64,000 nucleotides of DNA from Chiloscyllium plagiosum. Taxonomy: Eukaryota. The notes beneath the pieces were generated by a model, which was given only the letters and a program-made list of their open reading frames with translations, had not been told where the DNA came from and did not search any database. Position 1 is the stretch's first letter, and every line of letters starts with the position of its first letter. The translations under genes and the position numbers were made by a program. The stretch is taken from NCBI RefSeq assembly GCF_004010195.1, contig NC_057718.1, positions 82,727,122 to 82,791,121 of the forward strand, given 5' to 3'. This document shows positions 1-64,000 of the stretch, in pieces.

Positions 1-3000
1 CCTCAGTGTGGACTCAGACCCCCGGCCTCAGTATGGACTCAGACTCCCGGCCTCAGTATGGACTCAGACTCCCGGCCTCAGTATGGACTCAGACTCCCGG
101 CCTCAGTATGGACTCAGACTCCCGGCCTCAGTATGGACTCAGACTCCCGGCCTCAGTATGGACTCAGACTCCCGGTCTCAGTATGGACTCAGACTCCCCG
201 GCCTCAGTTTGGACTCAGACCCCCGGCCTCAGTATGGACTCAGACTCCCGGTCTCAGTATGGACTCAGACTCCCGGTCTCAGTATGGATGCAGACCCCCC
301 GGCCGCAGTATGGACTCAGACTCCCGGCCTCAGTATGGCGTCAGACCCCCGGCCTCAGTATAGACTCAGACCCCCGGCCTCAGTATGGACTTGAACTCCC
401 GATCTAATTATGGACTCTGATTCCCAGTCTCAGTATGGACACAGACTCCCGATCTCAGTATGGACTCAGACTCCAGGCCACAGTGTGGACTCAGACTCCT
501 GGCCTCAGTGTGGACTCGAACTCCCAATCTTAGTATGGCCTGAACACCCAGCCTCAGTATGGACTCAAATTCCTGGCCTCAGTATGGACTCAGAGCCCCG
601 GCCTGAGTATGGACTCAGACCCCCGGCCTCAGTATGGACTCAGACTCCTGGCCTCAGTATGGACTCACACTCCAGGCCTCAGTATGGACTCAAATTCCTG
701 GCCTCAGTATGGACTCAGAGCCCCAGCCTGAGTATGGACTCAGACCCCCGGCCTCAGTATGGACTCAGACTCCTGGCCTCAGTATGGACTCACACTCCAG
801 GCCTCAGTATGGACTCAAACGCCTGACCTCAGTATGAACTCAGACTCTCGGCCTCTGTATGCACTCAAACTCGCGATCTCAGTATGGACTCAGACTCCCA
901 GTCTCAATTTGGACTCAGACTGACAACCTCAGTGTAGACTCTGACTCCAGGCCTCAGTATGGACTCGAAACCCTGGCCTCAGTATGGACTCAAATTCCCA
1001 GCCTCAGTGTGGACTCGAGCTCCCGATCTCAGTATGGACTCGAACTCCTGGCCTCAGTATGGACTCAAATACCAGGTCACAGTGTGGACTCAGACTCCCG
1101 GCCTCAGTATGGACTCAGATCCCCGGCCTCAGTATGAACTCAGACCCCCGGCCGCAGTATGGACTCAGACCCCCAGCCTCAGTATGGACTCAAACTCCCG
1201 ACCTCAGTATGGACCTGAACTCCCAATCTCATTATGGACTCAGATTCCCAGTCTCAGTTTGGACACAGACTCCCGATCTCAGTATGGACTCAGACTCCAG
1301 GCCACAGTGTGGACTCAGACTCCCGGCCTCAGTATGGACTCAGATACCCGGCCTCAGTATGAACTCAGACCCCCGGCCGCAGTATGGACTCAAACTCCCG
1401 ACCTCAGTATGGACTTGAACTCCCAATCTCATTATGGACTCAGATTCCCAGTCTCAGTTTGGACACAGACTCCCGATCTCAGTATGGACTCAGACTCCAG
1501 GCCACAGTGTGGACTCAGACTCCGGACCTCAGAGTGGACTCAGACTACCGGCCTCAGTATGGACTCGAACTCCCAATCTTAGTATGGCCCAGAACATCCA
1601 GCCTCAGTATGGACTCAAATTCCTGGCCTCAGTGTGGACTCAGACCCCCGGCCTCAGTATGGACTCAGACTCCGGGCCTCAGGGCGGACTCACACTCCAG
1701 GCCTCAGTATGGACTCAAACGCCTGACCTCAGTATGGACTCAGACTCCTGGCCTCAGGATGGACTCACACTCCAGGCCTCAGTATGGACTCAAATGCCTG
1801 ACCTCAGTATGAACTCAGACTCTCAGCCTCAGTATGGATTCAAACTCCCGGTCTCAGTATAGACTCAGATTCCCAGTCTCAATATGGACTCAGATTCCCA
1901 ACCTCAGTGTAGACTCTGACTCCAGGCCTCAGGATGGACTCAGACTCCCGGCCTCAGTATGGACTCAGAATCCCGGCCTCAGTGTGGACTCAAACACCCG
2001 ACCTCAGTATGGACTGTGACTCCCGGCTTCAATATGGACTCGAACTCCCGATCTCATTATGGACTCAGATTCCCAGTCACAGTATGGACACAGACTCCCG
2101 ATCTCAGTATGGACTCAGACTCCAGGCCACAGTGTGAACTCAGACTCCCGACCTCAGTGTGGACACAGACTCCCGGCCTCAGTATGCACTCAGACTTCCG
2201 ACCTCAGTATGGACTCAGACCCCCAACCTCAGTATGGACTCATACTCCCGGCCTCAGTATGGACTCAGACCCCCGGCCTCAGTATGGACTCATACTCCCG
2301 GCCTCAGGATGGACTCACACTACCAGTCTCAATATGCACTCAGACTCTCATCCTCAGTGTAGACTCAGACTCCAGGCCTCAATATGGACTCATACTCCTG
2401 GCCACAGTGTGGACTCGAACTCCCGATCTCAGTATGGACTCAGACTCCCGGCCTCAGTATGGACTCAGACTCCAGGCCTCAGTATGAACTCAAACTCCCG
2501 ACCTCAGTATGGACTTGAACTCCCAATCTCATTATGGACTCAGATTCCCAGTCTCAGTATGGACACAGACTCCCGATCTCAGTATGGACTCAGACTCCAG
2601 GCCACAGTGTGGACTCAGACTCCTGACCTCAGAGTGGACTCAGACTACCGGCCTCAGTATGGACTCGAACTCCCAATATTAGTATGGCCCAGAACATCCA
2701 GCCTCATTATGGACTCAAATTCCTGGCCTCAGTATGGACTCAGATCCCCGGCCTCAGTATGGACTCAGACTCCGGGCCTCAGGGTGGACTCACACTCCAG
2801 GCCTCAGTATGGACTCAAACGCCTGACCTCAGTATGGACTCAGACTCCTGGCCTCAGGATGGACTCACACTCCAGGCCTCAGTATGGACTCAAACGCCTG
2901 ACCTCAGTATGGACTCAGACTCCTGGCCTCAGGATGGACTCACACTCCAGGCCTCAGTATGGACTCAAACGCCTGACCTCAGTATGGACTCAGACTCCTG

Positions 3001-5160
3001 GCCTCAGGATGGACTCACACTCCAGGCCTCAGTATGGACTCAAACGCCTGACCTCAGTATGGACTCAGACTCCTGGCCTCAGGATGGACTCACACTCCAG
3101 GCCTCAGTATGGACTCAAACGCCTGACCTCAGTATGGACTCAGACTCCTGGCCTCAGGATGGACTCACACTCCAGGCCTCAGTATGGACTCAAACGCCTG
3201 ACCTCAGTATGGACTCAGACTCCTGGCCTCAGGATGGACTCACACTCCAGGCCTCAGTATGGACTCAAATGCCTGACCTCAGTATGAACTCAGACTCTCG
3301 GCCTCAGTATGGACTCAAACTCCCGACCTCAGTATGGACTNNNNNNNNNNNNNNNNNNNNNNNNNNNNNNNNNNNNNNNNNNNNNNNNNNNNNNNNNNNN
3401 NNNNNNNNNNNNNNNNNNNNNNNNNNNNNNNNNNNNNNNNNNNNNNNNNNNNNNNNNNNNNNNNNNNNNNNNNNNNNNNNNNNNNNNNNNNNNNNNNNNN
3501 NNNNNNNNNNNNNNNNNNNNNNNNNNNNNNNNNNNNNNNNNNNNNNNNNNNNNNNNNNNNNNNNNNNNNNNNNNNNNNNNNNNNNNNNNNNNNNNNNNNN
3601 NNNNNNNNNNNNNNNNNNNNNNNNNNNNNNNNNNNNNNNNNNNNNNNNNNNNNNNNNNNNNNTATGGACTCAGTCCTCCAGCCTCAGTATGGACTCAGAC
3701 TCCAGGCCTCAGTATGGATTCAAACCCCCGACCAGAGTATGGACTCAGATTCCGGATCTCAGTATGGACTCGAACTCCCGATCTCAGTATGGACTCAGTC
3801 CTCCAGCCTCAGTATGGACTCAGACTCCAGGCCTCAGTATGGATTCAAACCCCCGACCAGAGTATGGACTCAGATTCCGGATCTCAGTATGGACTCAGAC
3901 TCCCGATGCCAGTATGGACTCAGACCCCCAGCCTCAGTATGGACTCGAACTCCCGATCTCAGCATGGACTCAGATTCCCAGTGTCAGTATGGACTCAGAC
4001 CCCCGATCTCAGTGTGGACTCAGACTCCAGGCCACAGTGTGGACTCAGACTCCCGACCTCAGTGTGGACTCAGACCCCCGGCCTCAGTATGGACTCAGAC
4101 TGCTGGCCTCAGGATGCACTCAGACTCCTGGCCTCAGCAGGGACTCAGACCCCCGGCCTCAGTGTGGACTCAGACCCCCGGCCTCAGTATGGACTCAGAC
4201 TCCCGGTCTCAGTATGGACTCAGACTCCCGGTCTCAGTATGGATGCAGACCCCTCCGGCCTCAGTATGGACTCAGACTCCCGGCCTCACTATGGACTCGA
4301 ACTCCCGATCTCAGTATGGACTCAGACTCCCAGCCTCAGTATGGACTCGAACTCCCGATCTAATTATGGACTCAGTCCTCCAGCCTCAGTATGGACTCAG
4401 ACTCCAGGCCTCAGTATGGACTCAAACCCCCGACCAGAGTATGGACTCAGACTCCCGATCTCAGTATGGACTCAGATTCCCGATCTCAGTATGGACTCAG
4501 ACTCCCGATCTCAGTATGGACTCAGAACCCCAGCCTCAGTNNNNNNNNNNNNNNNNNNNNNNNNNNNNNNNNNNNNNNNNNNNNNNNNNNNNNNNNNNNN
4601 NNNNNNNNNNNNNNNNNNNNNNNNNNNNNNNNNNNNNNNNNNNNNNNNNNNNNNNNNNNNNNNNNNNNNNNNNNNNNNNNNNNNNNNNNNNNNNNNNNNN
4701 NNNNNNNNNNNNNNNNNNNNNNNNNNNNNNNNNNNNNNNNNNNNNNNNNNNNNNNNNNNNNNNNNNNNNNNNNNNNNNNNNNNNNNNNNNNNNNNNNNNN
4801 NNNNNNNNNNNNNNNNNNNNNNNNNNNNNNNNNNNNNNNNNNNNNNNNNNNNNNNNNNNNNNNNNNNNNNNNNNNNNNNNNNNNNNNNNNNNNNNNNNNN
4901 NNNNNNNNNNNNNNNNNNNNNNNNNNNNNNNNNNNNNNNNNNNNNNNNNNNNNNNNNNNNNNNNNNNNNNNNNNNNNNNNNNNNNNNNNNNNNNNNNNNN
5001 NNNNNNNNNNNNNNNNNNNNNNNNNNNNNNNNNNNNNNNNACCCCGGCCTCAGTATTGACTTAGACCCCGGCCTCAGTATGAAATTGGACTCCTGGCCTC
5101 AGTCTGGACCCAGAATCGCAGCGTCTGCGTGAAATGGGACTCCCAGCCTCAGTGTGAACT
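1..5160. repeat. 25-bp tandem satellite/minisatellite, consensus CCTCAGTATGGACTCAGACTCCCGG, interrupted by two gaps
   Basis: Continuous 25-nt periodicity is visible. It degenerates at 5041-5160. N gaps at 3341-3662 and 4541-5040. Confidence 0.98.
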
Positions 5161-12451: not shown

Positions 12452-14406
12452 TGAGTTGAAAAATGTGGTGCTGGAAAAACACAGCAGGCCAGGCAGCATC
12501 CGAGGAGCAGGAGAATCGACCTTTCGGGCATAAGCCCTTCTTCAGGAATGAGACTGGTGTGCCAAGCGGACTTAGATAAAAGGTAGCGGGGAGGGAATTT
12601 GGGTGAGGGGCGCTGGGAATACGATAGGTGGAAGGAGGTGAGGGTGACGGTGATAGGCCGGAGAGGGAGTGGGGGCGGAGAGGTCGGGAAGAAGATCGCA
12701 GGTCAAGAGGGAGGTGCTGAATCCGTGGGTTGGGACTGGGATAAGGTGGGGGGAGGGGAAATGAAGAAGCTGGAGAAATCTACATTCATCCCGTGTGGTT
12801 GGAGGGTTCCTAGGCGGCAGATGAGGTGCTCTTCCTCCAGGCGTCGTGTGGCCAGGGTCTGGCGATGGAGGAGGCCAAGGACCTGTATGTCCTTAGCGGA
12901 GTGGGAGGGGGAGTTAAAGTGTTCAGCCANNNNNNNNNNNNNNNNNNNNNNNNNNNNNNNNNNNNNNNNNNNNNNNNNNNNNNNNNNNNNNNNNNNNNNN
13001 NNNNNNNNNNNNNNNNNNNNNNNNNNNNNNNNNNNNNNNNNNNNNNNNNNNNNNNNNNNNNNNNNNNNNNNNNNNNNNNNNNNNNNNNNNNNNNNNNNNN
13101 NNNNNNNNNNNNNNNNNNNNNNNNNNNNNNNNNNNNNNNNNNNNNNNNNNNNNNNNNNNNNNNNNNNNNNNNNNNNNNNNNNNNNNNNNNNNNNNNNNNN
13201 NNNNNNNNNNNNNNNNNNNNNNNNNNNNNNNNNNNNNNNNNNNNNNNNNNNNNNNNNNNNNNNNNNNNNNNNNNNNNNNNNNNNNNNNNNNNNNNNNNNN
13301 NNNNNNNNNNNNNNNNNNNNNNNNNNNNNNNNNNNNNNNNNNNNNNNNNNNNNNNNNNNNNNNNNNNNNNNNNNNNNNNNNNNNNNNNNNNNNNNNNNNN
13401 NNNNNNNNNNNNNNNNNNNNNNNNNNNNNNNNNNNNNNNNNNNNNNNNNNNNNNNNNNNNNNNNNNNNNNNNNNNNNNNNNNNNNNNNNNNNNNNNNNNN
13501 NNNNNNNNNNNNNNNNNNNNNNNNNNNNNNNNNNNNNNNNNNNNNNNNNNNNNNNNNNNNNNNNNNNNNNNNNNNNNNNNNNNNNNNNNNNNNNNNNNNN
13601 NNNNNNNNNNNNNNNNNNNNNNNNNNNNNNNNNNNNNNNNNNNNNNNNNNNNNNNNNNNNNNNNNNNNNNNNNNNNNNNNNNNNNNNNNNNNNNNNNNNN
13701 NNNNNNNNNNNNNNNNNNNNNNNNNNNNNNNNNNNNNNNNNNNNNNNNNNNNNNNNNNNNNNNNNNNNNNNNNNNNNNNNNNNNNNNNNNNNNNNNNNNN
13801 NNGGCCTTTGTGATGGGGGATGGAGGTGTACAGGGACTGGATGTCCATGGTGAAGATAAGGCGTTGGGGGCCGGGGAAGCGAAAATCATGGAGGAGGTGG
13901 AGGGCGTGGGTGGTGTCCCGAACGTAGGTGGGGAGTTCTTGGACTAAGAGGGACAGGATAGTGTCGAGTTATGCAGAGATGAGTTCGGTGGGGCAGGAGC
14001 AGGCTGAGACAATGGGTCAGCCGGGACAGTCAGGTTTGTGGATTTCGGGCAGGAGGTAGAAATGGGTGGTGCGGGGTTGTGGCACCAGGAGGTTGGAGGC
14101 AGTGGATGGGAGATCCCCTGAGGTGATGAGGTTATGGATGGTCTGGGAGATGATGGTTTGGTGGTGGGGGGTGGGGACATGGTCAAGGGGCAGTAGGAGG
14201 AGGTGTCCGCGAGTTGGCATCTAGCTTCAGCGGTGTAAAGATCGGTACGCCAAACTACCACTGCACCTCCCTTGTCTGCCGGTTTGATGGTGAGGTTGAG
14301 GTTGGAGTGGAGGGAGTGGAGAGCTGCGTGTTGTGAGGGTGTCCTTGTCTGCCGGTTTGATGGTGAGGTTGGGGTTGGAGCAGAGGGAGTGGAGGGCTGC
14401 GTGTTG
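12452..14406 (-). mobile_element. Penelope-like element: RT N-terminal part, gap, GIY-YIG C-terminus, 3' pLTR with hammerhead
   Basis: NPNLTIKPADK, FYLLPEIHKPDCPG, MDIQSLYTSIPH, AEHFNSPSHS...LGTLQPHGMNVDF. Hammerhead-like core at about 12518-12545. Gap at 12930-13802. Confidence 0.92.
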
Positions 14407-35146: not shown

Positions 35147-35154
35147 TGTAGTGA

Positions 35155-35253
35155 TTGGAACCAGCTGGATCTTGTTGACTACAAGATCCTTGATTGGGGT
35201 TGTTAACTTGTGCCATTCAGGAAAGCCCTGGCTGACAATATAGCCAGGAGATT
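35155..35253 (+). promoter_or_regulatory. LTR U3 promoter-like region (CCAAT boxes and TATA-like motif)
   Basis: GATTGG twice, GCCAATCAG in the 3' LTR copy, and TATATAA directly before CCAGGAGATT in several copies. Confidence 0.5.
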
Positions 35254-35274
35254 GCCCCTCTTCCGCGGTTACGA

Positions 35275-35306
<32 letters not shown>

Positions 35307-35332
35307 AAAAAAGAAAAAAAAAGAAAAAAAAA
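35254..35332 (+). mobile_element. Micro-retroinsertion: 20 nt of Tx1-like ORF2 plus an A-rich tail, 14-bp TSD
   Basis: GCCCCTCTTCCGCGGTTACG is 19/20 identical to the reverse complement of 61078-61097. ATAGCCAGGAGATT occurs at 35240-35253 and 35333-35346. Confidence 0.85.
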
Positions 35333-35336
35333 ATAG

Positions 35337-38300
35337 CCAGGAGATTAGAATCTCCTCATTTGAGGACTGACTGAACAAATATATAAACCAGGAGATTAGA
35401 ATATCCTCAGTTTAGGGACTGAATCTCAACCAGCTGGCTAATAAAAGACAAAAACAATAACCAGGCAAGAAAAAAAATTACCAGGAGATTTAGAATCTCC
35501 TCAGTTCAGATGACTGACTCCAAGCATGCTGGCCTCAGTCTGTGTGTACTAATGTTGTTGGTTTCTGTTGTTTTTTTGGGGGTGAAGCCTCATTCCTAAA
35601 CTGGCTGATCTACTTGGCCAATTTGTTAATTGGTATTCCTTTTTTTTAATTATTGAGGACTGATTTCTAAACTGCCTGATCCACACAGTCAATGTGTTTC
35701 AGATGTATTTCAGTTTTCATTAGGGGACTGTTGTTTCACATGCTGGTTATAACCTGTGTGTTACTCCTTTTCTTTTGAATTTGAGAAAAGGGCTATGCTG
35801 ATTTTATGGTAGGGCTTAGACCTTGCATTCTGGCTTTCTTTCTTTTTTGTATATGTCTTCACTGTTTTTTGGTGTTTGGACTGAGCCCTTGTGAGAAAAT
35901 ACATCTTGCCAGATGAGCTGTTCCTGGAGGTAGGCCAGGCTGTTGGGCTAGGCATCTGTAAAGACTGAACACCTGTGTGTGCGCGCGCTGAGAGGTGAGC
36001 ACTTGCTGCATCCTGGAGTTTGGGAGTAGACCCTGTCTTCAGGAGAGGACCAAACCCCTGTGAGTTAACTGCACCATTACAATTGTGCTGTGTTCCTGTG
36101 AGTGGGCCTGGTTCTCTATGGATGGGCCAGGGCTCTATGGAGACTGAACATCTGTGGGGTGTGCATTTACTGCCTTCAGGAGTGGACTCTGCCCTTGATT
36201 GTGCACTCTGTTTTAAGCAATGGACTCTGCAGTTTGGATGGACTCCATTTCTGACAATGCACTTTGTTTACTGGAGTGGACTCTGTTCCTGGGAATGGAC
36301 TCTATATTTTGAAGAGAACTGTTTATGGTAATGGACTCTGTGTACCGGAAAGGACTCTTTTTGGTAATTGACTCTGTCTTGCTTGTTGGGGTTATCAACT
36401 GCACTGTTGTGTCCCTGGATCTAGCAGGCTTCTCTGTGAGCTGGGAGGTTCATGGGTTGTCCTGAAAGCTGTCAATCTGAGAGCCAAAGAGTGGGTAGGC
36501 TGCCCTTTGAGGGCATGCTTGGTGCTGTCATCCTGGGCAGGTACTGGGGCGGGCTGGCCTCGAGCTGGCCAGAAGTTGTGAAGGGCAGGTAGGGAAGCCA
36601 GAAGATGGGTAGGCTGTCCTGACCGCTGTCATCCTGCGGGGAGGGGGGGGGGATGTTGAGGAAGCAGGACAGGCTGTACAAGAGGTGGCTGGAAGGTGTG
36701 TCAGGGTCGACCGAGAGCCGGAAGGGTCATGGGGTGGACCGAGAGCTGGAAGGGGCATAGGGGCAGGCTGCCTAAGAGTGGCTGGAAGGTAGGAGGGATG
36801 GGTGGCTTGCTGGGGGCTCTGTATTTGATGCATTTTTTTAATGTAATTGGACTGTTCTATATGTATTTGTTACTGTTTTGTGGTGAGTGAAAGTGGGATT
36901 TAAGTTTTGTCCTCATTTCCTGAAAATTGTTTGAACGGTGGGGTTTGGGGCTTGGCTTTGCTGCTCCTCTCCCTTGTAAAATTGCTGTTTCTCTGTATAC
37001 AGCTGTTAATGTTAACTGTTTTGTAAACTGTATTTTTTAAAATTTAAAAAAACAGGGATTAGAATCTCCTCAGTTGAGGACAGACTGAGAAAAAATATAT
37101 ATAAATCAGGAGATTAGAATCTCCTCCGTTCAGGGGACTGACTCTCAACTAGCTGGCTAATAAAAGAAAAGACAAAGAACAATGAGGGAAGAAAAAATTA
37201 CCAGGAGATTTAGAATCTCCTCTGTTCAGGCAACTGACTCCAAGCTTGCTGGCCACAGTCAGTGTACTACTGCTGTTGGATTCTGTTATTTTGGGGGGGG
37301 GAAACCTCATTCCTGAACTGGCTGATCTACATAGCCAATTTGTTAATTGGTATTCCATTTTTATTGAGGACTGATTTCTAATCTGCCTATCAACACAGTC
37401 AATGTGTTTGAGGTATATTTCAGTTCTCATTAGGGAACTGTTGTTTCACATGCTGGTTATAGCTTGTGTTACTCATTTTCTTTGGCTTTGAGAAAAGGGC
37501 TATGCTGATTTTTGTGGCAGGGCTTAGCCCTTGCACTCTGGTTTTATTTCTTTTTTTTTGAATGTGTTTTCACTGTTTGGACTAGGCCCCTGTGAGATAA
37601 TGCATCTTTCCAGATGAACTGTTCCTGTGGATAGGCCTGGCCCTCTGAGTAGACTAGGCCTCAGTAAAGACTGAACAGGTGTGCGTATGCGCATGCATGC
37701 TAGGAGGTGAGCATTTGCTGCCTGTTGGAGTGGACTCTGCCCTGTCAGTTGACTACACCTTTTATAATGAACTGTATTTGTGTGAGTGAGCCTGGTTCTC
37801 TGGATGGACCAGGCCTCTATGGAGACTGAATGTGTGTGTGTGTGGGGTGTGCATTTGCTGCCTTCAGGAGTCGACTCTACACACTGGATTGGATGTTGCC
37901 TTTGGCTGTGGACTCTGTTTCTGACAATGGACTCTGCATGCTGGAGTGGGCTCTGTTCCTAGGAGTGGACTCTGAAGAGAACTGTTTACAGTAATAGTCT
38001 GTATACCAGAAGGGACTCTGGTTGTTGGTAATGGATTTTGTCTGTCTTGTGTCCCTGGGTCTGGCAGGCCTCACTGTAAGCTGGGATGCTCATGGGTCAT
38101 CCTGAAAGCTGTCACCCTGAGAGCCAGAGGGTGGTTAGGCTGTCCTAAGAACCAGAAGGTAGGTAGGCCACCCTGATGCCAGATGCCCCGAGAGCCTGAA
38201 GCCTGAGCACTATCATCCTGACAAGGGGTAATCGGGACGGGCTGTCCTCGAGGTGCTGGAAGCTGTATCAGGGCAGTCGATAGGCCAGATGGCGTGTCGA

Positions 38301-38661
38301 CTTAGACAAGAACCAAATGGTACATAGAGGCAGATCGAGAGCCAGAACGCGAGTAATCCACCCTCAGCGCTGCCACTCCTGGCAGGTACCAGGGTGGGCT
38401 AGCCTAGAGATGGCCGGAAGGTGTGTCAGGGCCACATGGGGCATAGGAGCAGGCTTTCTTTGAGTGGCTGGAAGCTCTGTACAAGCTAAACGCTGCGTGC
38501 AGCCCAGGAGCTCCGTGTGCAGGCCCCTGCTGATGTTTCTATGTGGGAAATGCAAGCAAGCTTCATTAAACTAGTGATGCAATTGTCAATAATGTTGTTG
38601 TTCCATGTATTTTGTGAAAGCAGTTGTGATTTTGCAAGAGGAAGAAAAGAAATGCATATGA
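35337..38661 (+). repeat. Two diverged tandem ~1.6-1.7 kb non-coding units inside the 5' LTR (35337-37052 and 37053-38661)
   Basis: Colinear similarity, e.g. GAGAAAAGGGCTATGCTGATTTT at ~35783 and ~37489. Each unit starts with three partial LTR copies and ends A-rich. Confidence 0.85.
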
Positions 38662-38895
38662 CCAGGAGAGTGGAATCTCCTCTGTTTGAAGGATGGACTC
38701 CACGTTGGCTGGGCAGAGCCAGTGTACTGTGCACTGGTATAATAAAGGGTGATTTGGTGATGAGGAAAAAATATATAACCAGAAGATTAGAATCGCCTCC
38801 GTTTGGGCAACTGACTCCAAGCTGGCTGGCTACTGCCTGTGTACTGTGCACAAGTAACAGGTGATGGGATACCAGCCTCTGTAGCTATTTCAGTG

Positions 38896-39055
38896 TCAAA
38901 AAGCAGGGTGCTGGAAAAGCGCAGCAGGTCAGGCAGCATCCAAGGAGCAGGAGAGTTGCTATTTGGGGCTGATGGATGCTGTCTGACCGGCTGTGCTTTT
39001 TCAGCACCACGCGTTTTGACTCTGACTGTCCAACATCTGCAGTCCTCACTATCTC
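38896..39055. mobile_element. Fold-back Penelope pLTR inserted at the LTR/PBS junction
   Basis: Inverted family A arms, flanked by AG(C/T)TATTTCAGTG at 38883-38895 and 39056-39068. Confidence 0.8.
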
Positions 39056-41753
39056 AGTTATTTCAGTGGTGATGGGAGAAAACAGGACATGCCTGAAGAA
39101 AATTCACTTACAGCAGTCATCTTAGAATTGGGGTAAGCATTTCTGGCTTTATGCCTTTATTTGGGAAGCTTGACTCATTCGATCCTGCCATTGGAGACTG
39201 GGCCCAGTATGTGGGGAAAAAATGCAGTCTTTTCTGGGCAAATGACATTAGGGCAGATGAAAAGCAACAATCCTTCTGACTGCATGTGGATCTGCAGCAT
39301 TTTCAGTTATAAGGGCCTTATGGTTAAGGAATATTATGACCCCAAACCTCCTTTTTAATTCTGAAACTTTATCGGTTTTATTTGGCTGTTGGAGAACCAT
39401 GGGGAATCTGTACCAGGATTTTTGAGGAGACTGGCAGAGGCATGTGACTTTGAGATAATCCTGAATGAGATGCTGAGTGACTATTTGGTATGTGGGATTA
39501 ATGACATAACCATTCAGAAGTGCCTACTAGTTGATGCCCAACTAGACTTCAAACAGGCACTGCAGCTGGCCTTGTCACTAGAAAATGCAGCAAGTGGACT
39601 GTGGGAGCTACAGGACATTCAAACAAAAGTGGACTCCCTCATGTCTCCAACTGAGCTTGGGGAACACCACTTGAGTATAGGTAATCGCAGAGCCTCACAC
39701 AGGGCATGTGTTGAGCAGATGGACCCCAGGCCAACCCACAGCAGAACCCTACAACAAAGCCGAGACTCGGCCAAGTGGCTTATAGGTTCTCCAGCATCTG
39801 GGCCAGCAAGCTCCTGTAGTTGCTGCAGGTACGTGGACTCGAGACAGCAAAGGAGTCCTGCAAGGCCTGACTTGGGTAATAAAACTTGTAGGCTGGTACC
39901 CAGGAGAGGCCACACCCTGTAAAGTCCCTTTGCATGTGGATTGGAACAATTAAATTACTTAGCAACATCCAAATCAGAACTAATCAAAATTAACGTTTGG
40001 TTAAATGTCACCAAGTTCCCACAGAGTTCGATACTGGCGTAGCTGTACCTGTGGTTGCGGAATCTGTCTTTAACAAGATTCAATCAGGACTCTAACTCTT
40101 AAGTTTGTACAATCGAGGTTGAGCGTGTACACTGAGAACCATTGCAAATTAAGAGACTGGAGCTGAAGTCATACCCTTATGAAAAGTAGTTGGTGCAGTA
40201 ACCAGTGATGGTAGTAAAAGGCTCAGGCGCAGGCCTATTGGGGTGGAATTGGTTGAGAAAGATTTGCCTGGATTGGCTCAACATTTTTTTTCAATTAGAA
40301 AATGGCTCTCTGTGTAGTTTTAGTGAAATAACCAGGTGTTTTTCAGGAAGGGTTTTGAACTATCAAAGGGGCCAAAGCCACATTACCTGTTGACTAGGAA
40401 GCAATTTGAAGGTTTTCCAAGGCCCACCTGGTGCCATTTGCCTTGTGGGTAAAAGTAGAGGCAGAAATCTGGAGGCTGAAGAGCAAAGTAATCATCAAAC
40501 CAATGCGTTTGCAGAATGGGCAGGACCGGTCATACTGATTGTGAAGCCTGACCGCTCAGTTCGCCTTTGGGGGGATTTTTAAGCAAACGGTAAACCGCGC
40601 TCTCAGCTTGATAAATACCCGATCCCTCATACAATGCACTTGTACGTAGAGTTTGCAAGGGGGAGGTGGGGTGGGCTATCCTTTAGAAAACTGGACATAA
40701 GCCATACTTGTCAATTGTAACTGGATGAGGAGTTCCAGAAGTATGCTACGATTAATACCCATCAGTGTTGAGATCATGGGGTATCACCAGCCTGTGCCCT
40801 TTTCCAGCAGACCATGGAGAACATTTTACAAGGGGTACCTCGGGTTGCCATTTATCTGGATGGTGTATTAATAACTGGGAAGGCCAATAAAGAGCACTTG
40901 GAGGACTAGGACATAGTGCTTAAGTGCTCCCAGGCAGGCGTATGCCTTAGAAGGTGAAATGGTATGTTTTGGGTGCCCCCAAGTGACCTACTTGGGTTAC
41001 AGAGTCGACAAAACTGAGTTACACCATTTGGAAGAGAAATTGAGAGCAATCAAAGGAGCTCCAGCTCCCAGGTCTGTATCGGAGCTTTGGTCTTTCCTGG
41101 GGTTTGTGAATTATTATGGAAAATTCATACATAACCTGGCCTCCATCTTGGCACCTTACACCTGAAACAGGGAAGTGGCCACACAGCCAAGAAGTATCCT
41201 TTAGGAAAGTGAAAATGCAGCTATTGCCATCTAAGGTGTTGATCACTACCATCAGAAGTGAGAGGTAGTGCTGACATGCGATGCCTCCCCGTATGGTATC
41301 AGGGTGGTGTTGGCTCGCCGGTGACCCAATGGAGAGCTACACCCGATAGCGTCTGCTTCCCGGACATTGGCTGATGCCGAAAGCAAATATGCCCAGATAG
41401 CGAAGGAAGGTTTGGAGGTCATCTTTAATGTGCAGAAGTTCCACTAGTATCTTTACAAATGGGAATTTGTCATTGTAACCGATCACAAACCCCTGCTAGA
41501 CCGACTGAAGGAAGGCAAGGTGGTGACATCTACAGCTTGTGGTAGAATTCAGCATAAGCTCTTCGTCTCAGGGCATACAAGTTAGAACATTATCCAGGAA
41601 GCCAAATGGCTAAGGCAGATCCCTTGAGCAGCCTCCCACTGGCATATACTCCACCTACGGTGCCTCCCCTGGAACAGTCTGTTTGGTTTTAAACTTTCCT
41701 CACACCCTCCACCCCAACAATATCCAACTGTGGACACAAGAAGATCATGTCGT

Positions 41754-42065
41754 TTAGATTAATTACAGTGTGGAAACAGGCCCTTCGGCCCAACAAGTCC
41801 ACACCGACCCGCCGAAGCGTAACCCACCCAGACCCATTCCCCTACATTTTACCCCTTCACCTAACACTATGGGCAATTTAAGCATAGCCAATTCACCTAA
41901 CCTGCACATTTTTGGATTGTGGGAGGAAATCGGAGCAGCCGGAGGAAACCCACGCAGACACGGGGAGAACATGCAAACTCCACACAGTCGCCTGAGGTGG
42001 GAATTGAACCCAGGTCTCAGGCGCTGTGAGGCAGCAGTGCTAACCACTGTGCCACTGTGCTGCCC
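41754..42065 (-). mobile_element. HE1 SINE inserted in Gypsy pol
   Basis: Complete SINE between the RNase H and integrase remnants. Confidence 0.95.
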
Positions 42066-43516
42066 ACAACTGAAACAGCTGGTGGTAATGGGGGATATAG
42101 AAGGGCCATCACAATCAGGGATGAAACTTTTCTGGACCTGGTGAGATGAGGTCACTATAAAGCATGGTATGTTATTGAGGGGCGCATGGGTGACTATCCG
42201 GACACTGGCCAAACTCCACCAGGGTCATCCAAGAGGAAGATGCTAGCAAGAAGCTGTCTGGTGGTCATGGTTGGATGCTGACATTATTGCATTGGTGGGA
42301 CAGCTAACAAGGACAAAACTTGCCACCAGCAGCACCCCCACATCATGGGAATGGCTGGGAAAGCCCTGGGCTCAGTTGCATGTTGACTCCGCCAATCCTT
42401 TCATGGGCTCAATGTTCCTGATAGTTATGGACATCCATTCAAAGTGGTTGGACACACAAAGCTTATCTGGCAAACTCAGGGATAACGATTGAGAAGCTGC
42501 GAGCATCGTTCACAATACACGGACTCCTGGAATTATCGGTCACAGGCAACGGGACACCATTTACCAGCAGGGAGTTTGAATATTTCCTAAAGTCTGATGG
42601 CATTTGACACCTAAGGAAGACTCCATACCATCCATTGTCCAATGGTATCACAAAAGAACCATTTTAGTCAACAGTCCAAACGTTGAAGACAGTCTTAAAG
42701 AAGCAGCCTACATCGTCACTTGATACCAAACTGTCCCAGTTCCTGTTCAATTAAGGGCCATCCCACACACAACAGGGATAGCTCCAGCAGAGTTGCTGAT
42801 GGGGAGAAGACTCCGCACCAGGTTAAACCTGATATTCCCAAATCTGGTGGGTGGGGGGAGGGAGGGTGAAACAGCAGCAGGAAGGCCAATCCAGCCACAT
42901 ACCCCCTCTACGTGAGAGAGACGATTTAGTTCAGGGATGAAATTTGATGGCGGAACCATGGGAATGGCCCTGTATGGGTACGAGGTCAGGTTCTGTGACT
43001 TAGAGTACAGGCAGGTGATACAGTCCTGGACAAACATGTAGATCACCTGAAAGCTGTTACCTCTCAAATGGGGCAGGAGCAAAACATACCTGGCCCCTCA
43101 GACCAGCTGGGAAGCCTGTCAGAAACCAATAGTTCTCCCCCTCCATCTTGTGTCAAGTAAACCTCAGTCTGAGGTGAATGTAGCCTCAATCCTGTTACCA
43201 ACAGAAGAAGAGGAAGAAACTCTCCTGAGATGCTCCAGACACAATATCTGGGCAACAGTCCAGTAAACACCGCCATGTCAGAGTCTGCATCAGTGAAACT
43301 GGACTTGGAGTGGAAGTAGGGCAAGAAAATCTACGAGACAAAGACCAGGCCGATATCCCTGGACTTAGTGATTGGAACCAGCTGGATCTTGTTGACTGAG
43401 ATTCCTGACTGGGGCTGTTAGTCTGGGCCAATCAGGAAAGCCCTGGCTGACCCATATCATGAGATTTTAAAAAACAGGAGAATTCAGAAAAAATGGCAAA
43501 TTATATAACCAGGAGA

Positions 43517-44257
43517 TAAAACAAAAACCATTTACCACAGGGCAGTGGGGATCCCCTGTGGAGGGCTCTCTATGCGGGAGTCCCCCCCCCCCTTTCTCTC
43601 AGGGATCTGGGGTGGAGAGTGCTGCACGCAGCAGTCCCCTGCAACCGCAGATTGTGGTGGTTCACAGACTCCCAGCCCAACTGCTTGTTCTGTGGAGTTT
43701 GTGGACCATGTGTATATATGGGGTGTGGGCGGTTGCTCTTCCTTTTTAGTTTTCTAGAGAACCTTCTCCTCTGCATTTGGTTGCATTTCAGTCCCACACC
43801 TGACCTTTGGGCACCCAATACGGAGGGAGGAGGGTTGGTCAGAGGATCTCCTCGTGGGTCTGCTCCTGGGCCTGGCCAAACTGGCCATAAACAGGTCCAG
43901 GCAGCGGGCCGTGGAGGGGTTCGTTAGGGCCAACTGCCTGCCCCTCTTCCGTGGCTACATCTGAGCTCAGCTGTCCACCAACACCCTCAAGCAGTTCGGG
44001 GAAAGGTGGGCACTGCAGGGAGTGGAGTGCTTTATTTCCCCCTCCAACTCTTTTGATTTAATCCCTGTCCTTTTGTGAGAAGGGCACTGCTTGTCACTGG
44101 CCACTCGGGTGTTTTGTTCTTCCTGGTGGTGGAATATAAATATCATTTTCTGCACTCGTTTTTTCACTGTGTGAAAATGAGCACTCCCACAGTTAGGCGG
44201 TAAGGTGGGTGGGGGCTTTTCAAAAAAAAAATAAGAGAATTAAAAGCAGAAAACCAA
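43517..44257 (+). mobile_element. 5'-truncated Tx1-like LINE inserted in the Gypsy 3' LTR
   Basis: Zinc-knuckle remnant DSQPNCLFCG..VDHVY..C, RSEDLLVGLLLGLAKLAINRSRQRAVEG and a poly(A) at 44222. Flanked by TAACCAGGAGAT / TAACTGAGGAGAT. Confidence 0.85.
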
Positions 44258-44387
44258 TAACTGAGGAGATTTAGGTTTAGAATCTCCTCCGTTCAGGGGA
44301 CTGACTCCAAACTGGCTGGTCACAAACAGTGTCCTGTGTACAAGGAAATGAAGGGTGACTTGGTGACAGGATATTGCTGTTATTTCA

Positions 44388-60685: not shown

Positions 60686-63600
60686 CTTTTTTTTCTTCTT
60701 TCTTTTTTCTTTTCTTTTTTTCTTTTTCCCCACACTACCACCTGACAGCGATTAGTGCTTATTTTTCCCCAGTACCCATGTCACATGTGTGCAGGTGTCA
60801 GTCACAGTGAAAAACAACAAGTGTGTAAATCTTTATTCAATTCCCAACACCAGGAAGAAAGGAACCACCCAAGTGGCCAGTGACAAGCAGTGCCCTTCAC
60901 ATCAAAGGGCAATGCTGTGTGATCAAAACAGTGAAGGGGAGGACAGGGATTAAATCAAAATAGAGTTGGAGGGAGAAATGATGCACTCCACTCCCTGCGG
61001 CACCCACCTCTCCCTGAACAACTCCAGGGTGTTGGTTGACACCGCGTGCTGTTTTTCCAGAGACACCCGGGCTCTAACGTAATCGCGGAAGAGGGGCAGG
61101 CAGTCGGCCCTAACGACCCCCTCCACGGCCCGCTGCCTGGACCTGTTTATGGCCAGTTTGGCCAGGCCCAGGAACAGACCCACAAGGAGGTCCTCTGACC
61201 GACCATCACCCCTCTGCACCGTGTGCCCAAAGATCAGGAGTGTGGGACTGAAATGCAGCCAAAATCAGAGGAGAAGAACCTCTAGAAAACTGCAAAGGGA
61301 GTGTAGTTCCCACACCCCATATATACACATGGTCCACAGACTCCACAGAACAAGCAGTTGGGCTGGGAGTCTGTGAACCACCGCAAAGGATAGAAAGGGC
61401 AAAAGGTAGGAAGGGCAAGATTCGTGAACCGTGGATGACAGGAGAAATTGTACGACTAGCCAAGAGGAAAAGGGAAGCGTACATAAGGTCCAGACAGCTA
61501 AGAACAGAACCGTCCCTGGAGGAATATCAGAAGAGTAGGACCAGTCTTAAAATTGGAATCAAGCGGGCTAAAAGGGGTCATGAAATAGCGTTAGCGAGCA
61601 GAATTAAGGAAAATCCCAAAGCATTTTATTCTTATATAAGAAGCAAGCGGGTAACTAGAGAAAGGATTGGTCCACTAAAGGATAATGAAGGAAGGCTGTG
61701 TGTTGAACCTGAGAGAATGGGTGAGATTCTGGATGATGACTTTGCATCAGTGTTCACGGAGGAGAGGAAATGAATCTTGAGATTAGAGATAGAAGTTTGA
61801 TTAGTCTGGATCACATTGGCATAAGTAGGGAAGATGTGTTGGGTATGCTAGAGATTATTAAGGTGGACAAATCCCTAGGATGGGATGGGATCTATCCCAG
61901 GTTGCTGAGGGAGGTGAGAGGAAAGAGCTGGGACCCTGACAGATATCTTTGTGGCATCCTTAAGTACAGGTGAGATGCAGGAGGACTGGAGGGTAGCTCA
62001 TGTTGTTCCCCTGTACAAGAAGGGTAGTAGGGATATTCCGGGTAACTACAGACCAGTGAGCCTGACATTGGTGGTGGGGAAGTTGCTGGAGAAGGTACTG
62101 AGGGATAGGATCTATTTATATTTAGAAAAGAATGAGCTTATCAGAGATAGGCAACATGGTTTTGTGCGGGGGAGATCGTGCCTTACCAACTTGATAGAGT
62201 TCTTCAAGGAAGTGACCAAGTTGTTAGGTGAAGGGCAGGCTGTTGATGTCATATACATGAACTTTAGTAAGGCATTTGACAAGGTTCCCCATGGTAGACT
62301 AATGGAGAAAGTGAAGTTACATGGTGTGCAGGGTGTTCTAGCTAGGTGGATAAAGAACTCATTGAGCAACAGGAAACAGAGAGTAGTGGTTGAAGGGAGT
62401 TTCTCGAAATGGAGAAAGGTGACCAGTGGTGTTTCACAGGGGTCAGTATTTAGGCCACTGTTGTTGGTAATATACGTAAATGATCTAGAAGAGGGCACTG
62501 TTGGTATGATCAGCAAGTTTGCAGATGACACAAAGATTGGTGGAGTAGCAGAAAGCATAAGGGACTGTCAGAGAATACAGGAGGATATAGATAGACTGGA
62601 GAGTTGGGCGGAAAAGTGGCAGATGGCTTTCAATCCAGACAAATGTGAGGTGATGCATTTAGGCAAGACTAATTCTAGAGCGAATTATACAATGAGTGGA
62701 AGAGCCTTGGGAAAAGTTGATGGGCAGAGAGATCTGGGAGTGCAGGTCCATTGTACCCTGAAGGTTGCTGCACAGGTGGATAGAGTGGTCAAGAAGGCAT
62801 ATAGTATGCTTGTCTTCATTGGACGGGGTATTGAGTATAAGAACTGGCAAGTCATGTTAAAATTGTACAAGGCATTGGTTCGGCCACATTTAGAATACTG
62901 TGTACAGTTCTGGTCGCCACATTACCAAAAGGATGTGGACGCTTTGGAGAGGGTGCAGAGAAGGTTTACGAGGATGTTGCCTGGTATGGAAGGTGCTAGC
63001 TATGAAGAGAGGTTGAGTAGGTTAGGTTTATTTTCACTAGAAAAAAGGAGATTGAGGCGGAGATCTGATCGAGGTTTACAAAATCATGAAGGGTATAGAC
63101 AGGGTGGATAGAAACAAGCTGTTTTCCAGGGTGAAGGATTCAATGAGAGGTCACGCTTTCAAGGTGAGAGGTGGAAAGTTTAAGGGGGATACACGCGGCA
63201 AGTACTTCACACAGAGGCTGGTGGGCGTTTGGAACCTGTAGCCAGCAGAGGTGGTAGAGGCAGGCATGATAGATTCATTTAAGATGCGTCTGGACAGATA
63301 TATGAGTAGGTGGGGAGCAGAGGGATACAAATGCTTAGGAATTGGCCGAAAGATTTAGACAGTACATTTGGATTGGTTCAGGCTTGAAGGGCCGAAGGAC
63401 CTGTTTCTGGGCTGTAAATTTTCTTTGTTCTTAACCTGCGGTCGCAGGGGACGGCTCATACCAGATGCCTGAATGAAACGGGGAGGACTCCCACGTAGAG
63501 AGCCCTCCACTGGGGATCCCTACTGCCCGGTCGCAAGACGTGTCCGGGCGGTGGATGAGGGAGAAGAGGTGGACGGTGTGCAGCAGCAGTGTGTACAGGG

Positions 63601-63790
63601 CCCGACTTTTTACGGGCAAAAAAGGGACAAAACTAAAATTCCGGAGGCGGCTCAGGTTGTGGGGCACAGGTTCCCGGGGGAAGTACGGGACCTTGGGGCC
63701 AATGTGAAATTCCGTCCGGGCTGGGGTGAGCGCGGACGGGATCCCACCGCACACCTGAGTGTCCTCCAACTGGTCCGAGCACTGCGGTTT
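60686..63790 (-). mobile_element. Tx1-like LINE 3' fragment (60686-61386 and 63433-63790) split by a CR1
   Basis: RSEDLLVGLFLGLAKLAINRSRQRAVEG...FRERW and an A-rich tail at 60686-60727. The halves join colinearly with the copy at 43540-43680. Confidence 0.88.
61387..63432 (+). mobile_element. CR1 LINE (386-aa RT ORF remnant) inserted in the Tx1-like element
   Basis: NYRPVSLT, FSKAFDKVPH, KFADDTK and LEYCVQFWSP. Confidence 0.97.
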
Positions 63791-63842: not shown

Positions 63843-64000
63843 TTTAACAGCAGGAGCACACTGACTGTAGCACCAGTCAGCACAGAGTCAGTCCCCTGAA
63901 CTGAGGAGATTCTAAATCTCCTGGTTATTTTTTTACCCCCACACTGTCGCCTAACAGCATTAGTGTTTTATCTTCCCCAGCATCCACATTGTTTTTTCTC
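63843..64000 (-). mobile_element. 3' tail of another Tx1-like copy followed by the LTR target motif
   Basis: 63935-63990 resembles the 3' UTR at 60727-60785. On the minus strand the poly(A) is followed by TAACCAGGAGATTTAGAATCTCCTCAGTTCAGGGGACTGACTC. Confidence 0.8.

Follow-up and report, generated by a model that had tools for sequence, protein, structure and literature searches.

A probable Tx1-clade LINE of the shark Chiloscyllium plagiosum appears to target the TATA site of Gypsy LTRs and may borrow their promoter

Two crocodilian families of long interspersed nuclear elements (LINEs) belonging to Tx1, Tx1-8_Crp and Tx1-4_AMi, prefer long terminal repeat (LTR) retrotransposons (Kojima 2015, PMC4494074); the main text of that report gives neither a site, a TATA box nor an LTR-derived head. 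The same report presents SINEU and Tx1-Mar, also from crocodilians, as a case in which non-coding elements use the target of a Tx1 LINE and presumably move in trans, and it speculates about transcription out of the flanking target transposon (PMC4494074). The R2 element, as described in PMC6895275, is co-transcribed from the promoter of its target, and target sequence at the 5′ end of its RNA is believed to base-pair with the target, yielding full-length junctions. Here we analyze a LINE of the shark Chiloscyllium plagiosum in a stretch of 64,000 nucleotides (nt) of contig NC_057718.1 (the window), where pieces of it have entered both LTRs of a Gypsy-type retrotransposon at a TATA-like site. 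Aimed LINE insertion into LTR elements is already known; the analysis adds an LTR-derived head that lies in register with the target, and a non-coding passenger, neither of which was noted in a sequence-only reading of the window. That reading knew of no description of the target. Neither this shark family nor a LINE headed by LTR R sequence was found in the literature, a search that did not cover Repbase or Dfam.

The same reading had proposed that the LINE targets an LTR promoter site, and this gained support throughout the genome. LINE 3′ ends were located by an exact 17-mer (1,902 genome occurrences), and the 8-mer A[AC]CAGGAG stood 5-35 nt behind 384 of these 1,902, compared with 5 for a scrambled 8-mer. 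After the query and two near-duplicates were dropped, 57 of 60 fetched 3′ ends were scored, several of which share one array. Tabulating their flanks behind the poly(A), as had been suggested, revealed the LTR motif within 80 nt at no more than one mismatch in 35 of 57, against 4.6 expected by shuffling, while it followed 3 of 65 unrelated A-tracts of the window. Additionally, a sense LTR half was found within the 3-kb locus in 43 of the 57, and LTR sequence occurred in one of 18 window tiles outside the finding. Both proportions exceed the 20% of flanks in one repeat type that serves in PMC4494074 to call a LINE target-specific. On these counts it is highly probable that the family strongly prefers the LTR site, in sense orientation, genome-wide, and the specificity would be borne by its endonuclease.

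Viewed from the LTRs, the picture was similar. A 23-mer of the LTR upstream part has 1,967 exact genome occurrences, and in the first 40 such LTRs on contig C1, which were searched on the sense strand and assigned to classes by eye, nine had a LINE piece in sense orientation that began 4-20 nt past the anchor (a weak match in one of them), 27 were uninterrupted, one had a SINE-like (short interspersed nuclear element) insert with a duplication, and three broke off near the site. The motif was present once in each of the 27 uninterrupted LTRs. The target duplications were mostly 12-17 nt long and carried site-private variants on both sides of the insert (loci L030, L032, L040, L043, and L049), so that the motif belongs to the target and is not, as the sequence-only reading had allowed, a normal internal part of the LINE. 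Only about 8 of 100 listed exact matches had the A-type motif of the window, the rest belonging to a sister LTR family, B, without the hairpin that had been thought part of the site; as B is the main target, the hairpin was rejected as a recognition signal. The TATA-like T of 16 intact B LTRs precedes by 29 nt the A in a word that resembles an initiator, as judged by the Inr consensus.

Two further loci involve the same sequences. In L189 (C1:13822971-13823351), a short SINE-like insert with an A tail and target duplication occupies the same LTR site, and an Rfam search with this insert gave no match. In L047 (C1:34691836-34694852), short LINE 3′ pieces together with LTR R sequence lie inside open reading frame (ORF) 2 of another copy of the same LINE.

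The 5′ ends of full-length LINE copies consisted of about 35-45 nt of LTR R sequence, starting from the initiator-like site of the LTR. Specifically, in 30 head loci collected via the LINE 5′ untranslated region (UTR), the 75 nt that precede the unique 5′ UTR matched LTR-B R sequence in 29 (at most 3 of 300 shuffles). A GT-rich spacer marked the head in 27 of the 30, and an extra T near +12 was present in 11 of 39 heads versus 1 of 29 plain LTRs, these sets of loci overlapping; together, spacer and extra T indicate that the head moves along with the LINE. A search for one exact head pattern gave 109 genome occurrences, and from the 100 listed we fetched 34, picked for a short spacer, and inspected them by eye. 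First-type heads numbered 32: 27 were joined to the target motif without a seam, the sequence continuing across the initiator-like site, two were truncated behind the motif, and three had foreign junctions, starting at about -3 to +1. In a further three foreign junctions, the head began between about -7 and +1. Private variants of the target were duplicated in L133 and L136, where the duplicated stretch of about 30 nt reached as far as the initiator-like site. Moreover, one of the three foreign junctions (L233:90-207, C15:53164035-53164295) joined a complete 5S ribosomal RNA (rRNA) copy, located at the target motif, to the LINE 5′ head. This fusion is likely a template-switch chimera, as expected if the reverse transcriptase (RT) reached the 5′ end of the RNA and then jumped. 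Deeper in the LINE, about 50 nt of the 5′ UTR behind the head (for example in L113 and L102) resemble LTR-A R sequence, significantly so against one window LTR copy and not the other, a hint that this layer is possibly an older captured head.

A non-coding passenger family of 1.5 kb, with two window copies and 2,338 first-look candidates in the genome, also starts with R-derived sequence, here from LTR family A, and ends in an A-rich tail. Its longest ORF from a methionine codon spans 101 amino acids (aa). Derivation from the LINE was considered and rejected, as the passenger has no DNA similarity to the full-length LINE copy L089 and no long ORF. Behind the best 20 other copies, the motif was found in 12, the LTR 3′ half in 11, and either of these in 18, and single arrays contained passengers side by side with LINE pieces. 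Judged from these flanks, the passenger inserted at the same LTR site as the LINE, and the LINE enzyme would have moved it in trans. In the crocodilian case, as given in PMC4494074, SINEU and Tx1-Mar have a Mariner DNA transposon as target and U1/U2 small nuclear RNA heads, whereas the shark head is the R region of the target itself, in register with the TATA box. Separately, a recurrent non-coding unit of about 150-250 nt, which starts in LTR R-derived sequence and is A-rich at its end, was seen at 63927-63790 (minus strand) of the window and in L011, L017, L023, and L027; this array unit is possibly another passenger family.

Site preference, orientation, duplication, array growth, and the LTR-derived head in target register can be read from the sequences, and a mechanism that would connect them is as follows. 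A LINE with an apurinic/apyrimidinic-type endonuclease (APE), probably of the Tx1 clade, would attack two related families of Gypsy LTR by a bottom-strand nick at their TATA box, where its poly(A) tail would prime reverse transcription, and the second cut would usually fall 12-17 nt downstream. The duplication rebuilds the target site and lets head-to-tail arrays grow. The LINE RNA would start at the LTR initiator, its copied head would pair with the matching target sequence to leave a seamless TATA-initiator-head junction (as has been proposed for R2), and each well-placed copy would inherit the LTR promoter. Passenger RNAs would be carried to the same site in trans. We put the probability of this full promoter-borrowing model, in which a Tx1-like LINE re-acquires an LTR promoter at each insertion, at about 0.6. 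R2 itself differs in its restriction-like nuclease, ribosomal DNA target, ribozyme, and carriage of upstream target sequence (PMC6895275), whereas the shark LINE has an APE nuclease, inserts into an LTR of Pol II type, and takes along target sequence from downstream. The wider picture is of a promoter parasite of an LTR retrotransposon: the TATA box would be lost each round and re-supplied by in-register insertion, a sub-lineage would shield its 5′ end by a repeat like that of TART, passengers with LTR heads of their own would follow the same route, and the host LTR would be split at its core promoter in about one-fifth of copies. This more inclusive account we advance tentatively, at slightly less than even odds.

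Several observations weigh against promoter borrowing or limit it. The upstream LTR part stood directly before the head in only about 3-6 of the 34 loci, most seamless heads coming after an earlier insert and its A tail, and the head might act as an ordinary internal promoter without a TATA box. RNA data examined at L132, from a pair of single-cell poly(A) runs and two sets of contigs, carry no weight either way, with low depth, no position at which many molecules start, and zero reads in one run. Specificity was incomplete, in that both motif and LTR were absent from 6 of the 57 LINE copies and some duplications (e.g., L012, L022, and L042) are off-target, with loose likeness to the motif; furthermore, the sampled loci came partly from the same arrays, and their counts are not fully independent. 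A second head type, described below, does not fit the seamless model directly. Finally, LINE copies were about 10% diverged and no fully open ORF2 occurred in the roughly 60 long loci, where N gaps accounted for several apparent long "open frames", so that the system may be extinct.

Could the targeting be real and the LTR head a one-time ancestral capture, which now serves as an internal promoter or is neutral, with the seamless junctions a by-product of homology? Internal promoters starting at +1 are common in LINEs, and most seamless heads have no adjoining upstream LTR part. The weaker, older-looking LTR-A-like layer in the 5′ UTR likewise suggests repeated passive captures, a likeness confined to one window LTR copy. 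A single capture does not, however, account readily for the exact register between captured sequence and target, with the TATA box at -29 and the head from about +1, for foreign-junction heads that begin at the initiator-like site, or for a passenger that has its own head from LTR family A. We regard this explanation as rather unlikely.

Less probable still, and in our view doubtful, is that the endonuclease merely prefers a short A-rich/GGAG sequence, of which the LTR TATA site is the commonest good match, with no dedication to the LTR. Duplications at off-target sites are loosely motif-like (L012, L022, L038, L039, L042, and L048), and the exact 8-mer occurred within 35 nt at only 20% of 3′ ends. 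But such an 8-mer is expected about 200,000 times by chance in 3.56 Gb, and LTR copies probably number in the tens of thousands, as extrapolated from the 1,967 exact 23-mers; 43 of 57 loci are nonetheless LTR-anchored compared with about 1 of 18 background tiles, and the 5′ end of the LINE itself carries target-derived sequence. That the motif is part of the LINE 3′ tail, or that the arrays arose by local tandem duplication or as errors of assembly, is very improbable and largely refuted, for although one three-motif block of the window was duplicated as a unit and a few loci are near-duplicates (L007/L010 and L053/L054), uninterrupted LTRs hold the motif once (27 of 40), duplications copy site-private variants, 5′ truncation points differ between array members, and different cargoes (LINE, passenger, and 5S copy) occupy the same site.

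The second head type, represented by 91 exact junctions, has the start of the R head replaced by the LINE's own ORF2 end and 3′ UTR over a variable length, up to about 630 nt. Among 20 loci examined, the copy's own 3′ region was the best match for its 5′ repeat in 3 of 9 copies (L089, L078, and L158, with shared private variants) and was not the best match in L148, L076, L121, L147, L122, and L143; the tree did not resolve. These three copies hint that this head may be regenerated from the copy's own 3′ end. The arrangement resembles that of TART in Drosophila, for which a 5′ repeat of subterminal 3′ sequence is described and a template jump proposed (PMC1636488, PMC5537684), whereas TART is telomeric and of another clade, and regeneration of the repeat in the shark LINE is favored in just those 3 of 9 copies.

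Regarding the LINE itself, full-length copies are about 7.3 kb and comprise a repetitive 5′ UTR, ORF1, and ORF2. The open endonuclease-RT frame of L142 (622 aa) had an N-terminal APE endonuclease (PF03372, E 1.3e-11) followed by an RT (PF00078, E 4.1e-12), and its ORF2 aligned with human L1 ORF2p, with catalytic positions matched. Together with a poly(A)-type tail, 5′ truncation, and target duplication, this is the organization of the Tx1 clade, to which the LINE likely belongs. An ORF2 match to zf-RVT (E 9e-4) fell under the curated cut-off, and a CCHC-like knuckle in ORF1 translations was seen by eye. The closest named relatives were unannotated whale shark and horn shark proteins (64% in the APE), in keeping with a cartilaginous fish, followed by unannotated proteins of sturgeon (50% APE, 62% RT) and turtle (45% APE, about 55-60% RT), and the search for protein relatives included no named Tx1 sequence among its matches. 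Tx1L of Xenopus laevis is likewise a LINE with an APE endonuclease and a specific site inside another transposon (PMC1950540), and the endonuclease hairpin loop of L142, which would contact the target, resembles at its start the Tx1L loop grafted in PDB 2v0r, a weak sign of kinship. Differences are that the Tx1L target is the DNA transposon Tx1D and that its specificity was demonstrated biochemically in PMC1950540, whereas that of the shark LINE is deduced from insertion sites.

Site choice by target-specific LINEs is usually explained as the avoidance of harm to the host. Here, site and LINE 5′ end fit base for base, which points to promoter access as a second reason. With 9 of 40 sampled LTRs hit, one transposon would here be disabling the core promoter of another on a large scale, and a natural APE nuclease whose target sites in the genome run to thousands offers material for studying how specificity arises.

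In the window, the motif recurs about 14 times, whole or partial, as first reported: 12 copies with at most 3 mismatches lie between 35242 and 44260 (sequence match over both LTRs), and two partial copies, at about 35460 and 37053, were recognized by eye. At no more than 2 mismatches, the whole window held 13 matches versus 2.2 expected, and none of 100 shuffles reached 13. The blocks 35329-35560 and 37045-37280, with three motif copies each, differed at only 11.6% of aligned sites; the three-motif block was copied as a unit, and thus not every motif copy is a separate insertion event. The target element is identified as a Gypsy LTR retrotransposon by its paired LTRs and by a natural ORF piece of the internal region (40917-41162) whose best match was the Ty3 RT (E 6.8e-8). 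Eight short Gypsy ORF pieces had no match in a Pfam search. Downstream of the RT, at 42247-42604, we noted by eye what we take to be integrase-like motifs; neither PDB nor Pfam searches returned a match for this piece.

All features of this element are on the plus strand. The U3-like upstream part of the 5′ LTR, of family A, ends at the TATA-like site (35147-35240) and differs by 12% from its counterpart in the 3′ LTR (43362-43455). It is followed at 35241-35346 by a LINE insert between two exact copies of a 13-nt target duplication (35241-35253 and 35334-35346), both with the same variant base. The sequence-only reading had counted two recognizable inserts of Tx1-like sequence, one per LTR; this one consists of only about 20 nt of LINE, identical at 21 of 21 positions to the ORF2 end of L089, and an A-rich tail. 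Its LINE part differs from the normal 3′ end, and no further case of such premature ending occurred among the fetched loci. Short LTR R pieces, A-rich tracts, and more motif copies (35385 and about 35460) occupy 35347-35477 and recur as a block at 37045-37197, the second motif/R/A-tract block of the comparison above (37047-37197). The two passenger copies, each non-coding, lie at 35478-37046, with an LTR-A R-derived head, unique body, and A-rich tail, and at 37198-38645, and differ by 14.5% across the aligned body. Two motif copies with LTR R-U5 sequence and the downstream half of the 5′ LTR follow (38659-38891). The end of this LTR is interrupted at 38892-39055 by a short, presumably MITE-like (miniature inverted-repeat transposable element) sequence that has inverted ends and many further copies in the window.

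The Gypsy-type internal region (39080-43360) is degenerate, with many stops and a SINE-like insert at 41754-42066. In the 3′ LTR, the upstream part and three motif copies with short A-rich inserts between them (43362-43518) precede the second recognizable insert, which did prove to be LINE 3′ region: a 5′-truncated copy of 740 nt (43519-44258) with ORF2 end, 3′ UTR, and A-rich tail that matched over 43528-44142 (79% to L089) and 44180-44209. The target duplication and R-U5 half of the LTR complete the element (44259-44387). A third insertion, on the minus strand (63915-63978) and not noticed in the sequence-only reading, comprises a further LINE 3′ end (63978-63937), an A tract, and the exact motif (63927-63915). 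Also on the minus strand, a 5′-truncated LINE copy (60686-63774) has no motif behind its tail at 60686, as was apparent from the outset. An insert on the opposite strand (about 61390-63428) splits this copy; the insert contains an open frame of 397 aa (61918-63111) and is presumably another LINE, CR1/L2-like. Elsewhere in the window, abundant SINE-like repeats resemble what we assume to be shark HE1, a stop-poor stretch at about 12600-14400 has open frames on both strands, and a long array of 25-bp tandem repeats occupies the window start (1-5100).

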